A DNA stretch of 64,000 nucleotides from sequence record OL631480, one strand, 5' to 3'. The DNA is from Escherichia phage ECML-123-2. The translations under genes and the position numbers were made by a program. Below, piece after piece: positions 13,969 through 64,000 of the stretch. How positions within the stretch are numbered: position 1 is the first letter of the stretch; every line of letters begins with the position of its first letter. Under the pieces are notes generated by a model that saw nothing but the letters and a program-made list of their open reading frames with translations, had not been told where the DNA came from and did not search any database.

Positions 13969-14133
13969 TTACTCTTCTTTTTCTTTAGATTCCTCTTTTT
14001 TCTTTTTAGGAATCTGTTCAGGACCTTTATTTACTACAGCACCTGACGTTGTTCCAGTGGAGATATTTTCAGGATTACCACCTGAATCTCCAGCTACCAT
14101 ATCTTCTTTAATAAATTCTTTATATGTTTTCAT
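13969..14133 (-). CDS. small protein (54 aa) at the 61.1 position, not in ORF track
   Basis: MKTYKEFIKEDMVAGDSGG...KKKKEESKEKEE; start overlaps the gene 61 region. Confidence 0.4.
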   Translation of the reverse strand: MKTYKEFIKEDMVAGDSGGNPENISTGTTSGAVVNKGPEQIPKKKKEESKEKEE

Positions 14134-57934: not shown

Positions 57935-58351
57935 TTAAATGTAAATATTTTTGCCGTAATACTTATACCAGTGTGGCTTCATTAAAATTTTTTCATCGAG
58001 TCGTTGTTGACTCAACTTAATAGCTGATTTGCATGGATTATAATCATTTTTCCATTCTACTGGAATATCGCTGATGTCAGGAACTTCAGTATCTTTTATA
58101 CTGAACCCGCGTTTTAAGCATTCCGTTATAATGTCCGATTGACGCTTTCGCAAAAATTCTAACTTATCGTAAAAGAAAGTAACATGACCAGAACCTAAAA
58201 TAAATTTAGAAGATATTTTAAAATCTTTAACGCGCTTACCGTTTGCCACATGCTTACGAACTATACCAAAAACACGCGGCAATTCACGGTATTCTGCGAT
58301 TAAATGTTGATCAGCAAGTTCAGATACTAAAGTCAAATTAATACGAGTCAT
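57935..58351 (-). CDS. denV: endonuclease V (pyrimidine dimer DNA glycosylase) DenV
   Basis: 138 aa [29 protein letters not shown]... matches recalled T4 DenV. Confidence 0.93.
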
Positions 58352-58410: not shown

Positions 58411-58941
<531 letters not shown>

Positions 58942-59867: not shown

Positions 59868-60226
59868 TTAATTTTCCTACAATCACTCACAAACTCTTTC
59901 ATTGACTCATTTTCAATATAAGACATGTAGCTATTATATTCTTTTAATTGTATTTTGTAATCTTTTTTTCTTTGCCAATTTATTTTAAAATTATCATAAT
60001 GAAAATATAAAATGATACCAAAGAATGAAAACAATGAAATAATTTTAGTATAACAAAGCTCACTCCAAACTTCTGTTATATTTACTGTGCCGTCGATGTT
60101 TAAAATAAGACAGTCAATTAACAATCCAAAAAGACTACCTGCAAGAGCTGCAGCCAACGCCACAGCAAAAATTAAAAATGACTCAGAAAACGAATATTTG
60201 ACTTTATTTAGTTTTGGCTTTTGCAT
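59864..60226 (-). CDS. membrane protein
   Basis: 120 aa with hydrophobic segments. Confidence 0.55.
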   Translation of the reverse strand: MQKPKLNKVKYSFSESFLIFAVALAAALAGSLFGLLIDCLILNIDGTVNITEVWSELCYTKIISLFSFFGIILYFHYDNFKINWQRKKDYKIQLKEYNSYMSYIENESMKEFVSDCRKIK

Positions 60227-60621
60227 CGTGATTCCTTAACAAATTTCATAATTTCATCAAATTCATACGCAGCAAGTTTAAGCTGATGTTCCTTTTTAAT
60301 CTTTTTACACTGTGCTTTCCAATCACGTACGCGTTTACGATAATGCCTTCCTTGATACCAGTATCCTACCCAATTTACGGGTACTAATAAAAGTGGAACT
60401 ATTAATGGAAGAATTAGCATTAACACAAGTATTTCGCCAGAATCAATATCAGTCATAACATCTAAAACACCTCCAATAATCAATAGAATTACAAATGATA
60501 TGAGTATAACAGGACCTATTAACACATCAGTAGAAATTATCTGACGCTTTAATTCATACTTCAACGGTTTACTTGGAAGGTATAGTGATGGCTTTGACAT
60601 ATTCTCTACATTCCTTAACAA
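60208..60621 (-). CDS. membrane protein
   Basis: 137 aa with two TM helices. Confidence 0.5.
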   Translation of the reverse strand: MLRNVENMSKPSLYLPSKPLKYELKRQIISTDVLIGPVILISFVILLIIGGVLDVMTDIDSGEILVLMLILPLIVPLLLVPVNWVGYWYQGRHYRKRVRDWKAQCKKIKKEHQLKLAAYEFDEIMKFVKESRCKSQN

Positions 60622-61183
60622 ATTTTTCTAGTAATAAATCACTTTCAAAATTGGGATTTTCTACAAATTTATCAAAAAGATCATCAACAATAGTTAAGAT
60701 ATTCTTTTTACTAAGAATACGTTTATTTTCATGCTTCGTTTCAGAATCAACTATAAGAGTAAAGAAATATTTCTTGCCCTGAAATTTTACAGTAGTATCA
60801 ATATAAAATAAATTTGACTTTTGTAAATTACGTTTAAACCATGCGTCACTTAAACTATAAACACCGAGATAATCAAAATCGTCGTTTAAATAACAAACCG
60901 TCCATTCAGGAGAAATGAAATCAGTAAATTCAACATCAAAATCACACGTCAATGAATGAATTGATTCAATACTGTTAATGAGTATTCCAGGACGTATTAA
61001 AGACTTTTTACCTCTAGAAAATCTTCCGGAAAGGCTTTCATCAGTTTCATATGAAGACCCCCAATAGTAATTACGTCCTTCTGCCATGCGTTTAAGAGCA
61101 TTTAGTAATTGGTCTGGAACATCAACCTGTCTTTGGAACTCTTCAAACATTGAATTGAAATCACTTTGCATTTTCATTTTCAT
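60569..61183 (-). CDS. hypothetical protein
   Basis: 204-aa ORF. Confidence 0.6.
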   Translation of the reverse strand: MKMKMQSDFNSMFEEFQRQVDVPDQLLNALKRMAEGRNYYWGSSYETDESLSGRFSRGKKSLIRPGILINSIESIHSLTCDFDVEFTDFISPEWTVCYLNDDFDYLGVYSLSDAWFKRNLQKSNLFYIDTTVKFQGKKYFFTLIVDSETKHENKRILSKKNILTIVDDLFDKFVENPNFESDLLLEKFVKECREYVKAITIPSK

Positions 61184-61198
61184 TCCTATTTACTCCAA

Positions 61199-61223
61199 GT
61201 ATAAGGGGCCGAAGCCCCTTATC
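61199..61223 (-). terminator. UUCG-tetraloop terminator
   Basis: taaggggccgaagcccctta. Confidence 0.55.
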
Positions 61224-61224
61224 A

Positions 61225-61818
61225 TTATTTCAGAGAATTAATGTATTCCTGAACATCGGCAGAGGTAGTTTCAACCCCAGAAATATTACCGTTAAAGGTT
61301 TCAACTCGAGCAAGGGTATCTTCAATATCAACCTTAGTCAGTGCTGCAATTTCAACTACATCATCAGCAGTACTAATTCCAAGGGCATTCGCTGCACGAG
61401 TTTCACGGATATATTCCAATTTAACCGCAAGTTCTTGACGAGCATCATCTAACTCAACTACTTTCTTGGCGATTTCAATTCGCATTTCAGCATAACCGTC
61501 AGCCTTAGTAGTCAACTGCTCAGCTGTTCGACGATATAGTAAACCGAGTTTAGCATGCATTGTTACATCTTGGCCTTCGGAAAGAAGTTTACGAATTTCA
61601 CGCTCTTTTGATTCGGCCTGTCGATTCTTTTCGATAACAAGTTCACGAATACGTTTTTCTTCGTTAATAGATTTAACAGAAGCAGTTTTTAGATCTTTAA
61701 TTTTATCAAGTAGTTTTGCTGCTGCAGCAGTATACTGTTCTTCGACAGATAGATTTTTAGCCATAGCAGAACCAAGTTTAGTGCGAATAAACTCAACAAT
61801 TTTCTTCAGTGTGTTCAT
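61225..61818 (-). CDS. coiled-coil hypothetical protein
   Basis: 197-aa ORF, largely helical coiled coil. Confidence 0.6.
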
Positions 61819-61865
61819 AGTATTTCCTTAGGTTAATTGAGATTTAAAATCCATGAGAGTATTAT

Positions 61866-62039
61866 ACTCCGGATAGTTTGTAAACTATTTCAACATCGCC
61901 TTTTGCTGCTTTATAACCTTCAGCCCAAGATACAACCGAGTTTTTATCCGAAGATTCAAATTCTGGCATTGGGCTTTCGCCAATGTTCACGCAGTATGTT
62001 TCTTCATTTTCGTCGAACCAAATAATTAAAGTAGTCATT
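61866..62039 (-). CDS. small hypothetical protein (57 aa), not in ORF track
   Basis: MTTLIIWFDENEETYCVNIGESPMPEFESSDKNS... with SD ggagaaataa. Confidence 0.4.
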
Positions 62040-62107
62040 TATTTCTCCGTTTTCTGTATTTGTTTTGATAAGTCTATAATAACACCGTCCTTGGCGTTTG
62101 TACACAA

Positions 62108-62383
62108 TTATTTCATATTATTGAAATATTCTTCTGCGATTTCATCGTTATCATGGTAAACTTTAGAAGACAGTTTAACATAACCTTCAGCAGTGAACAT
62201 GTTAATCACAACCTTTACAGTATACCACTGACCATCTTCATTACCCATTACTGCATAGGTTTCAAACATCGGATGGTCAGGACCGATAACTTTAATATCA
62301 TTCACTGTACGACCGAAATCTTCTGAAACACATTTCATAAAGAAGTTGAACAGTTCGCCGTAATTATCCATTTCATTCTCCAA
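62108..62383 (-). CDS. hypothetical protein
   Basis: 91-aa ORF with SD ggagaatga and early promoter. Confidence 0.6.
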   Translation of the reverse strand: MENEMDNYGELFNFFMKCVSEDFGRTVNDIKVIGPDHPMFETYAVMGNEDGQWYTVKVVINMFTAEGYVKLSSKVYHDNDEIAEEYFNNMK

Positions 62384-62413
62384 GTTGTTTTTGTATCAGT
62401 AGTTGATAGTTGT

Positions 62414-62443
62414 ATAGTACCATGGAAGAACAGGGATGTAAAC
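62414..62443 (-). promoter_or_regulatory. T4-type early promoter (conserved family member)
   Basis: minus GTTTACatccctgttcttccatggTACTAT with the same upstream element as 21305..21334. Confidence 0.5.
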
Positions 62444-62576
62444 AGTTTTGTGAAAAAATTTTTTAAAAAGTTTTAGGGAATTCTAGGGCAGGGAGGGGCA
62501 ATTAAAAGATAGGATAATATATTATAAAGGGTAGAAACTAAATGATGTCTAGAGAGGCCCGGAAAGGCCTAGATAC

Positions 62577-62606
62577 CAAAAAGCCCCAACCTTTTGGTCG
62601 GGGCTA
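62577..62606 (-). terminator. rho-independent terminator after the internal-protein-like gene
   Basis: minus agccccgaccAAAAggttggggct followed by ttttgg. Confidence 0.6.
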
Positions 62607-62612
62607 AGAATG

Positions 62613-63086
62613 TTATTTGATTTGTTTAGCAGACCAAATGCGGTCTTTAATAATTTTTTGGATGTCTTCAACATACTCAAGAGAGTGAACATGTGGGTTA
62701 TCTTTGAAACTATAAGCACGAGCTAGCTTTTGGCCTTCAGTTTTGATTACTAAAAGCTCTTTAAGGATAGCTTCATATTTGGAGATAATTCCTTTAACAA
62801 TATTTTTCTCTTGTGTGACTTTAGGATCTGCTTTAGGAGCAGGTTTACCTGAAGCCTTTGCAAAAGCAGCTCCAGTAGCAACTAAACTTTTCCAAGCCAT
62901 ACTAACTGCATTCCCTGTAAATCCTTCGGCTTTCATATCACGAGCAAATTGGAATCGTGATTCATCGGAAGCATCTTTATAGGAATATTTACCCGCGGCA
63001 ATGGCAGCTTTTGCAACAGCTTGAATTTCAGTGCTAGATGCTTCATTTAACACCGCTTCATTTAAAAATTGAGTATATGATTTCAT
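62613..63086 (-). CDS. internal-protein-like protein with capsid targeting sequence
   Basis: 157 aa from ATG at 63086; N-terminus MKSYTQFLNEAVLNEA resembles T4 internal-protein CTS (MKTYQEFIAEA, cleavage after L-x-E). Confidence 0.55.
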   Translation of the reverse strand: MKSYTQFLNEAVLNEASSTEIQAVAKAAIAAGKYSYKDASDESRFQFARDMKAEGFTGNAVSMAWKSLVATGAAFAKASGKPAPKADPKVTQEKNIVKGIISKYEAILKELLVIKTEGQKLARAYSFKDNPHVHSLEYVEDIQKIIKDRIWSAKQIK

Positions 63087-63130
63087 CTTATTTCCTGTTT
63101 TAATTTGTAGATTTAATATACTAATATTTA

Positions 63131-63162
63131 TACCAAAAAGCCCCAACCTTTCGGTCGGGGCT
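63131..63162 (-). terminator. second copy of the same terminator hairpin, upstream of the internal-protein-like gene
   Basis: agccccaacctttcggtcggggct, near-identical to 62581..62604. Confidence 0.55.
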
Positions 63163-63164
63163 AA

Positions 63165-63469
63165 GCCTTGCGGCAACCTTGTCGGGGTTCCACCTGCTAA
63201 GGCAAGTGTTTGTACGAAACGCCGGGATTCGAACCCGGTTATTAAGTAGTTGACGCTACTCAATATTTTTAAAAGGCCATATCTCGACCATATCCGAACG
63301 TTCCGTCAAAAACGCTACTCGGCTTACGGCAAAGATATTTCCTCGAATCGATAATTCGGTGCGCCGTTTCTGCTGTGATAGTAAAGAGCCAGAACACAGT
63401 AAAACTGTGGGAGGAAACTATACTCCAGGGAACATCAGTCCGACGACTTACCGGTAGCGACCCGGTTTC
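63165..63469 (-). ncRNA. structured non-coding RNA region next to the tRNA genes (possible T4 stable RNA C/D-like)
   Basis: about 300 bp without a credible ORF; minus-strand tRNA-like T-arm ccgggTTCGAATcccgg; GC content above neighbours. Confidence 0.4.
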
Positions 63470-63820
63470 TTAATATTCTTTTAAAGAATCAATATATTCA
63501 CGGCGTTTACGCCACAAATCAATTGCTTCATACGCGGATTCAGCATTTCGAATTAGCCGGCATTTATGTAAAGACTTATGATTTTGATATTGTGTAGATA
63601 ACGGAATTGTATCTAAAAGGTCTTTACGATCAAAATATTCGTAACCATCTAAACCAAATGAACGATTTTTGAGAAATTGCCAATGACCATATTCGTTTTC
63701 GACATAAACATAATCTGCATGCTGATAAAGCAAATTAATTACACGTTCAGAAATAACAGTATCATTATGATTAAAATAGAATGTTAAATCATGAACTACT
63801 AAATAAACATTACCTTTCAT
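63470..63820 (-). CDS. hypothetical protein within the tRNA region
   Basis: 116-aa ORF. Confidence 0.5.
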   Translation of the reverse strand: MKGNVYLVVHDLTFYFNHNDTVISERVINLLYQHADYVYVENEYGHWQFLKNRSFGLDGYEYFDRKDLLDTIPLSTQYQNHKSLHKCRLIRNAESAYEAIDLWRKRREYIDSLKEY

Positions 63821-63838
63821 ATTTTCCTCACTTATAAT

Positions 63839-63914
63839 TGGTCGAGGCAGTAGGGATCGAACCTACGACCTAGGACTTAGAAGGTCCTTGCTCTTCCTTC
63901 TGAGCTATGCCCCG
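63839..63914 (-). tRNA. tRNA-Arg (anticodon TCT)
   Basis: 76 nt cloverleaf folded by hand: 7-bp acceptor stem, D/anticodon/T stems all pair, anticodon loop CUUCUAA, T-loop TTCGATC, encoded CCA. Confidence 0.85.
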
Positions 63915-63918
63915 TAAT

Positions 63919-63994
63919 TGGGGTGACCGATGGGAGTCGAACCCATGACTACGAGAATCACAATCTCGAGTTCTACCAACTGAACTACGGCCAC
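63919..63994 (-). tRNA. tRNA-His (anticodon GTG)
   Basis: 76 nt cloverleaf; anticodon loop UUGUGAU, C73 discriminator, ends ...CACCCCA like bacterial tRNA-His; encoded CCA. Confidence 0.75.
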
Positions 63995-64000
63995 ATTAAT

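Follow-up and report, generated by a model that had tools for sequence, protein, structure and literature searches.

A late-promoter cassette between duplicated terminators at the e.8-rnaC site of T4-like phages carries a candidate internal protein gene

Here we examine a 64,000-nucleotide stretch of Escherichia phage ECML-123-2 (sequence record OL631480; the whole stretch is referred to below as the window) and, within it, an open reading frame (ORF) on the minus strand at 62613-63086, which encodes 157 amino acids plus a stop and which we call ORF A. We propose, with a probability of roughly 0.7, that ORF A, a late gene which T4-like phages can dispense with, encodes an internal protein (IP) that would be led by a capsid targeting sequence (CTS), packaged into the head, processed by the protease gp21 and injected with the DNA, most likely to counter host defence. 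The gene lies behind its own late promoter and between two copies of a terminator hairpin, in a unit that some close relatives possess and others lack. The components of this proposal carry different weights: packaging into the head is, as judged from the sequence, quite probable, and an anti-defence activity, argued by analogy with characterized internal proteins, is a tentative assignment.

Results

The ORF A leader resembles a capsid targeting sequence

The ORF A protein starts with MKSYTQFLNEAVLNEASS, and its amino-terminus reads MKSYTQFLNE/AVLNE/A (slashes mark predicted cleavage), so that two protease-type LNE/A sites stand in tandem, L8-N9-E10/A11 and L13-N14-E15/A16. Leader codons 1-15 (MKSYTQFLNEAVLNE; 63042-63086, minus strand) would accordingly specify a CTS-like propeptide that could be cut after E10 and after E15, giving a predicted mature N-terminus of ASSTEIQAVAK or AVLNEASSTEIQAVAK. 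The leaders with which it was compared are those of IPIII, also representing IPII (MKTYQEFIAE/A), Ip4 (MKTYQEFITE/A), Ip5, Ip6 (MKTFKEFIAE/S), T4 IPI (MKTFKEFTSTTTPVSTITE/A) and a second gene found at the same site in related phages, gene B (MKTYAEFLTE/A). The first 10 residues of IPIII are enough for head targeting, and amber-suppression mutagenesis of the CTS has tied residues 4 and 7 to targeting and residues 8 and 10 to processing (PMC9026906). All four of these mutationally important positions are kept in ORF A, as Y4, F7, L8 and E10; its sequence thereby agrees with a CTS at residues 4 and 7 and with a gp21-type L/I-x-E site at residues 8-10. A leader of the form x-[YF]-x-x-F-L-x-E, 9 to 15 residues in length, stands right before a conserved A/G-S-S mature start in every full-length relative of ORF A. 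The likeness to the targeting sequence of T4 internal proteins, which an earlier sequence-only reading had noticed in the ORF starting at 63086, is therefore borne out both at the critical positions and by conservation of the leader in relatives.

Elsewhere in the window, a 54-residue ORF just upstream of the homologue of primase gene 61 (13969-14133, minus strand) also starts with a near-canonical leader of this type, MKTYKEFIKE, followed by a low-complexity tail of Gly, Ser, Lys and Glu. It belongs to PHROG 1823 (unknown function), and no TATAAATA late-promoter motif was found within 90 nt upstream of it.

Duplicated terminators and a late promoter frame the gene

Transcription of the minus strand runs from the tRNA cluster through rnaD and rnaC to ORF A, and from there to e.8, e.6 and onward. 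A repeat search returned one 36-nt direct repeat around ORF A, at 62573-62608 and 63130-63165, with 35 of 36 positions identical and the sole mismatch, T/C, located in the hairpin loop. The 28-nt core pattern of this repeat occurs exactly twice in the window, with 0 occurrences expected from 100 shuffles. Read on the minus strand, the repeat is AGCCCCGACC-(G/A)AAA-GGTTGGGGCT followed by TTTTTGG; it was detected by a terminator scan, and each copy comprises a 10-bp G+C-rich stem, a 4-nt loop and then UUUUUGG. The folding energies of the copies are -19.5 and -20.3 kcal/mol, compared with about -10 to -11 for shuffled sequences (z about -3.6). By these features both copies are predicted to be strong intrinsic terminators acting on ORF A's own strand, with the upstream copy (63130-63165, loop GAAA) ending the tRNA/rnaD/rnaC unit and the downstream copy (62573-62608, loop AAAA), which begins 4 nt past the stop codon, ending ORF A. 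The sequence-only reading had described near-identical flanking segments of 34 bp; the duplication is real and its placement otherwise right, the length being 36 nt and hence undercounted by 2 nt.

That reading made no mention of a late promoter that partly overlaps the upstream repeat copy at its end. The minus-strand sequence directly past the upstream terminator is GGTATAAATATT, and a T4-type late promoter motif, TATAAATA, lies at 63125-63132, 38 nt before the ATG of ORF A and with its first 3 nt inside the repeat copy. T4 late promoters consist of an 8-bp TATA box and have no -35 element (PMC2988020). A Shine-Dalgarno sequence, AGGA (63093-63096, minus strand), can be read 6 nt before the ATG. 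The motif TATAAATA is under-represented in the window, with 6 occurrences against 10.2 expected from shuffles, and all five of those on the minus strand stand 13-38 nt before the start of an ORF: soc, an rI.-1-like ORF, e (twice) and ORF A. Both its scarcity and its placement would fit a selective pressure that keeps stray late promoters out of this early region.

An alternative gene model, a TTG-started ORF of 216 codons (62613-63263), was rejected because its reading frame would pass the terminator and enter rnaC. A foreign origin of the cassette was likewise rejected, since its composition matches that of the window (GC content 36.7% versus 34.5%, with typical GC at third codon positions).

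The site is polymorphic among T4-like phages

Many Tequatrovirus (T4-like) genomes match the region at 99% identity, and the cassette stretch is 100% identical to Escherichia phage Pinarejo. In T4 the spacer between e.8 and rnaC measures 284 nt and holds one terminator copy, no ORF and no TATAAATA. Positions 1-236 of this spacer align to 62372-62607 of the window and positions 202-284 to 63130-63212, so that the two alignments overlap by 35 nt, which is the repeat; the single T4 copy (L002:4826-4861) corresponds to the upstream copy of the window. As the overlap of the flanks amounts to one repeat copy, the window and T4 differ by exactly one clean unit of 557 bp (62609-63165), made up of ORF A, the late promoter and one repeat copy, which is also absent in T2, PST and RB7.

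Locus states were sorted by searching with the flanks plus cassette and comparing the spans matched in each record (about 1400 bp for A, about 810-840 bp for an empty site, about 1500 bp where only the flanks match, and a further class of about 2070 bp), followed by inspection of individual genomes; the flanks are carried by about 770 genomes. Four states were found in Tequatrovirus: empty (T4, T2, PST and RB7), A only (this window, fD1 and RB51), B only (G3F7 and T4_ev151) and A followed by B (fPS-65). Gene B is an ORF of 187 amino acids starting MKTYAEFLTEAAKLPSE, whose likeness to A in BLASTP is limited to the first 11 residues; it carries the commonest variant of the late promoter motif, AATAAATA, which likewise lies 38 nt upstream. 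Gene A occurs in 511 phage records and gene B in 165, with 'hypothetical' as the annotation throughout among the matches listed. A comparison of the locus among T-even phages, which had been suggested as a check, thus shows a polymorphic site that may be empty or hold A, B or both. In the A copy of fPS-65 (L004:1619-1957), which the annotation gives as truncated, an A-run contains a frameshift, reflecting either a pseudogene or a sequencing error.

The same site carries further cargos outside these genomes. Ten IMG/VR loci retrieved by way of e.8 each hold at least one leader-bearing ORF there, in the form of A alone (3/10), A with B (3/10), A with a cargo X (2/10) or X with a gene C (2/10). 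Gene C, the third leader-bearing gene, encodes 205 amino acids and starts MKTYNEFLNESVLNEA/GVRMTK. Cargo X is a DUF7338 membrane protein of 184 amino acids with a hydrophobic N-terminus and no targeting leader; it is found in Dhakavirus-like phages (L009:1387-1941, L017:2136-2690 and L018:2826-3380) in the same frame of terminator and TATAAATA, and in Dhakavirus MX01 it lies alone, with TATAAATA, flanked on either side by the terminator proper to that lineage, in two identical copies. The order of cassettes varies, X preceding C in locus L017 and A preceding X in L018. Mosigvirus AV110 and Jiaodavirus KpV477 also have homologues of A immediately downstream of the tRNA/rnaC cluster, and the succession of terminator, TATAAATA and leader-bearing ORF recurs in KpV477 and in seven of the ten IMG/VR loci. 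The KpV477 homologue (L011:2495-3030) appears in the annotation as two short ORFs and has a TAA within its reading frame; here too a pseudogene or a sequencing error may be responsible.

A shared 5' module ends at the predicted cleavage site

Alignment of an A-type gene (L018) with a C-type gene (L017) showed the two to be near-identical from the terminator through TATAAATA and the untranslated region up to leader codon 16, and to have no similarity from the codon that follows ..LNE/A. A breakpoint exactly at the predicted cleavage site is what would be expected if the leader were a separable module that also provides homology for recombination. Gene A itself appears to be old at this site, since its homologues occupy the same place in AV110 and KpV477 and its composition is native. 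For T4 and T2, whose sites are empty, deletion between the direct repeats is the simplest explanation, and re-insertion by the reverse reaction is equally compatible. The suggestion of the sequence-only reading that the flanking repeats act as recombination handles gains support from the clean T4 indel, from the four Tequatrovirus states and from the cargos of other genera, all of which point to repeat-mediated exchange as the probable mechanism.

The predicted product and its virion record

Removal of the leader would leave a mature protein of 142 amino acids and 15.5 kDa with an isoelectric point of 9.6, which is basic as in the T4 IPs (PMC9026906). ORF A is assigned to PHROG 2280 ('unknown function'), and no significant match was obtained in Pfam or NCBIfam. 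An AlphaFold model (predicted local distance difference test score, pLDDT, 75) compared with PDB and BFVD found matches limited to its own family, and no likeness to IPI* in sequence or fold was seen in Pfam, NCBIfam or PDB. The model presents leader residues 4-15 as disordered (pLDDT <50), followed by a confident three-helix domain (18-71), a linker rich in Pro, Ala and Lys (75-87) and a helical hairpin (88-154); the only internal L-x-E motif falls inside a predicted helix. This is a very small family, with 13 matches from a word-indexed search of 5.8 billion clusters and 13 relatives, all of them from T4-like phages, from an exhaustive profile search of 1.84 billion representative proteins.

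A near-identical protein has been recorded in virions. The product of g140 of Yersinia phage fD1 matches ORF A at 155 of 157 residues (99%) and is marked PPAP, the particle-associated class, in an analysis of purified virions by LC-MS/MS with a strict threshold; in the same table Ip4 (g129) is marked PPAP and the neighbouring e.8 product (g139) is unmarked (Table S3, PMC8309999). The paper that describes the phages fPS-2, -65 and -90 contains no proteomics.

Discussion

The arrangement described here suggests a simple course of events for the ORF A product. An N-terminal CTS of 10-15 residues would direct it into the prohead scaffolding core, the prohead protease gp21 would remove the leader at LNE/A, and a basic mature protein of about 15.5 kDa would stay in the head until injected with the DNA. 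By analogy with Ip1-3, the injected protein may then neutralise a host defence before phage gene expression. At the level of the genome, the gene is arranged as a self-contained expression cassette, in which the tRNA/rnaC terminator, TATAAATA, a Shine-Dalgarno sequence, leader and cargo follow one another before the terminator recurs. Through homologous recombination or slippage at the 36-nt copies, either in one genome or with a co-infecting relative, such cassettes could be deleted, inserted or stacked while the neighbouring transcription units stay undisturbed.

A number of observations weigh against this proposal. The ORF A leader departs from the canonical CTS at 5 of 10 positions, and the gene lies outside both classical IP loci, ipI beside 57B and ipII/ipIII beside e. 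The fold of the product offers no functional clue, PDB and BFVD containing no match beyond its own family, and both cleavage and injection of the protein are predictions. The fD1 proteome has low specificity, with 113-137 of 277 products classed as PPAP, among them DenV, lysozyme e and NudE (PMC8309999), so that the virion support drawn from a list including such non-structural enzymes is modest. As to function, ip4-10 together with Ip1-3 gave no reproducible inhibition of newly tested GmrSD variants (Silas et al. 2025), for which reason an anti-GmrSD activity of ORF A cannot be assumed. Finally, presence and absence of the cassette could spread through homology of the flanking genes, with the repeats playing no part.

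Two other accounts of the product deserve consideration. ORF A might be an unpackaged late protein, for example a factor in assembly, lysis timing or exclusion, its CTS likeness being non-functional or a relic. Such an account would fit the placement of the gene away from the classical loci, the many non-structural proteins on the fD1 particle-associated list and the predicted standing of cleavage and injection, but it leaves unexplained why all four mutationally important leader positions are kept, why the leader is conserved in very divergent relatives while the remaining protein changes, why genes B and C at the same site carry the same type of leader on unrelated mature parts, and why the sequence breakpoint between A and C falls exactly at the predicted cleavage site. 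By our own estimate from amino-acid frequencies, moreover, chance would supply so specific a motif about 1e-5 times per phage proteome, and we consider an unpackaged product improbable. We likewise give little credence to the view that the protein enters the prohead core as an accessory scaffold or assembly component, as has been proposed for IPIII, and is there degraded or retained without acting as an injected effector. IPIII mutants assemble heads more slowly and form polyheads (PMC9026906); the helical, basic ORF A protein with its Pro/Ala/Lys linker would suit contacts with DNA or scaffold, and the lack of reproducible GmrSD inhibition by Ip4-10 could be read in the same direction. However, T4, T2 and PST lack the gene yet assemble heads normally, wholesale degradation is unlikely because the protein has one internal L-x-E only and this lies inside a predicted helix, and presence or absence from strain to strain fits an accessory gene in an arms race better than an assembly factor. 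A packaged and injected protein is the reading that we retain.

A separate question is whether the duplicated terminators are active handles or the footprint of one old insertion or duplication, kept because a terminator is needed per transcription unit, the locus states having since spread by recombination in conserved flanking genes. The latter is doubtful in our judgement, although it has points in its favour: KpV477 holds the homologous gene at the same site between two unrelated hairpins; the repeat copies of Mosigvirus AV110 have diverged; gene B ends in a different stem-loop, which has only GGGCTTTTT(GGTAT) in common with the others; and T4-like phages recombine freely anyway. Set against these are the empty T4 site, which retains exactly one repeat copy as the 35-nt overlap of its flanks, the unrelated cargo of MX01 between two identical copies of its own lineage's terminator, the closer likeness of repeat copies within a genome than across genera, and the differing cassette order (X-C in L017, A-X in L018). 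Recombination between regulatory repeats, with mini-circle products, has in addition been demonstrated in RB49/phi1 (PMC2839356). Exchange through the repeats is hence the explanation that we prefer.

Much of the conceptual background to this locus is established, including the IPs themselves, the leader they carry, their hypervariability and the part they play against type IV restriction. Ip1, Ip2 and Ip3 of T4 have been identified in 2025 as specific inhibitors that each act on a different GmrSD type IV enzyme (PMC12373910). ORF A shares with T4 IPI-III and Ip4-Ip10 (Black; Repoila et al. 1994; Silas et al. 2025) a CTS leader, which in these proteins has 10-19 residues and ends in L/I-x-E, a small basic mature protein, dispensability, variability among close relatives, mature parts that are unrelated to one another and flanking repeated regulatory sequence. 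It differs from them in its site, e.8-rnaC instead of ipI or ipII/ipIII, in its consensus late promoter as opposed to the early-type promoters at the classical ip genes examined, in its tandem LNE/A site, and in the lack of any Ip annotation among the database matches listed for its family. At the ipI locus of T4 and PST, the genes ipI, ipV and ipVI each stand behind one early-promoter repeat of about 60 nt (atttcacaaagttgtttaca...gtgatactattacc), an early-promoter equivalent of the repeated terminator and late promoter that mark the e.8/rnaC site.

It has also been published (PMC2839356) that accessory ORFs are shuffled through recombination between repeated stem-loop/promoter elements (PeSL), with mini-circle intermediates, and the authors connected this to the earlier observations of Repoila et al. 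1994 on IP loci. As in the PeSL and PmSL elements (Arbiol et al. 2010; Comeau et al. 2014), short stem-loop terminators joined to a promoter are here repeated around accessory ORFs in a hyperplastic region, coincide with the boundaries of indels between close relatives and would insulate the cassette transcriptionally. The G+C-rich stem-loop, a terminator by prediction, and the copies flanking such indels are both features by which PeSL are recognized. Those elements carry a sigma-70-like early or Mot-dependent middle promoter; here the stem-loop is joined instead to TATAAATA, a late box, the repeat is the tRNA operon's terminator, and in some lineages the shared 5' module runs through the leader codons. 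The early promoter of e.8 lies about 130 nt beyond the downstream repeat copy and so is not directly joined to it as in PeSL.

The gene had also been seen before. RB32ORF132c/RB51ORF140 (GenBank FJ839693) is the same gene as A, with 98.7% protein identity, and the RB51 record already notes that it is 'flanked by 34 bp imperfect direct repeat'; that record names Ip4 and Ip5 and describes this ORF as a hypothetical protein only, without linking it to IPs, a late promoter or terminators. The claim of the sequence-only reading that this would be an uncharacterised internal protein variant accordingly holds as far as the 'unknown function' of its PHROG and its 'hypothetical' status among the matches listed are concerned, the flanking repeat having been on record in RB51. 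A search of the supplements of Silas et al. turned up no sequence strings matching the ORF A leader, one on the locus names of the ORF brought up nothing relevant, and in the literature and database entries consulted we found no recognition of A, B or C as IPs, of the site as an IP locus or of the late-promoter cassette. Judged by the missing Ip annotation among the matches listed, A, B and C are unlikely to be among Ip7-Ip10 (Repoila et al. 1994). What is new here is a further candidate IP gene at a proposed, so far unrecognised third locus and a late-promoter variant of a known cassette design, the underlying concepts (IPs, hyperplastic IP loci and shuffling by way of regulatory repeats) being known.

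In the present phage, denV (57935-58351) directly abuts e (58411-58905) on the minus strand, and no Ip4 lies beside denV as it does in fD1, PST and RB51; the classical ipII/ipIII locus is hence empty. The closest complete genome carries two small annotated IPs at the ipI site, and taken together these observations imply that ORF A would be the largest internal protein of the phage.

Viewed more broadly, it is about an even chance that the e.8-rnaC interval constitutes a third IP locus of Tevenvirinae, built of portable units of terminator, late promoter and leader whose 5' module can recombine at the cleavage site, and supplying at least three injected families (A in about 500 phages, B in about 165, and C), each perhaps countering a different defence. 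Work of 2025 and earlier counts two IP loci, 'the two Ip loci' in the words of Silas et al. 2025, and about ten Ips, figures that would have to rise, for loci and repertoire alike, if A, B and C are packaged. Injected IPs act ahead of any phage gene expression, and hundreds of Tequatrovirus genomes that are therapeutic candidates would, on this proposal, hold unannotated determinants of host range. The locus also offers a natural example of how a module of leader, promoter and terminator may make an injected effector of an arbitrary ORF, which is relevant to the engineering of T4 heads for protein delivery. The outcome is a concrete and testable set of candidate injected effectors and not a new principle.

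Neighbouring features of the window

Downstream of the cassette, the e.8 homologue occupies 62108-62371 on the minus strand, with its early promoter at about 62414-62442. Upstream, the final gene of the tRNA cluster is rnaC (63213-63351, minus strand), the species 1 stable RNA, which is 99.3% identical to T4 rnaC, and beyond it lies rnaD (63358-63470, minus strand). The identity of rnaD to its T4 counterpart is only 79%, whereas the adjoining rnaC reaches 99%. Neither RNA gene matched an Rfam family at the gathering threshold, the Rfam hits within 60000-64000 being two tRNAs only. A tRNA-His (GTG) at 63919-63994 (minus strand) stands beside tRNA-Arg (TCT), and the eight tRNAs annotated in T4 do not include a tRNA-His. 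In T4, rnaD directly adjoins tRNA-Arg, which is followed by segB; in the window an ORF of 116 amino acids (63470-63820, minus strand; PHROG 3355, unknown function) lies between rnaD and tRNA-Arg and corresponds to RB51ncORF141c.

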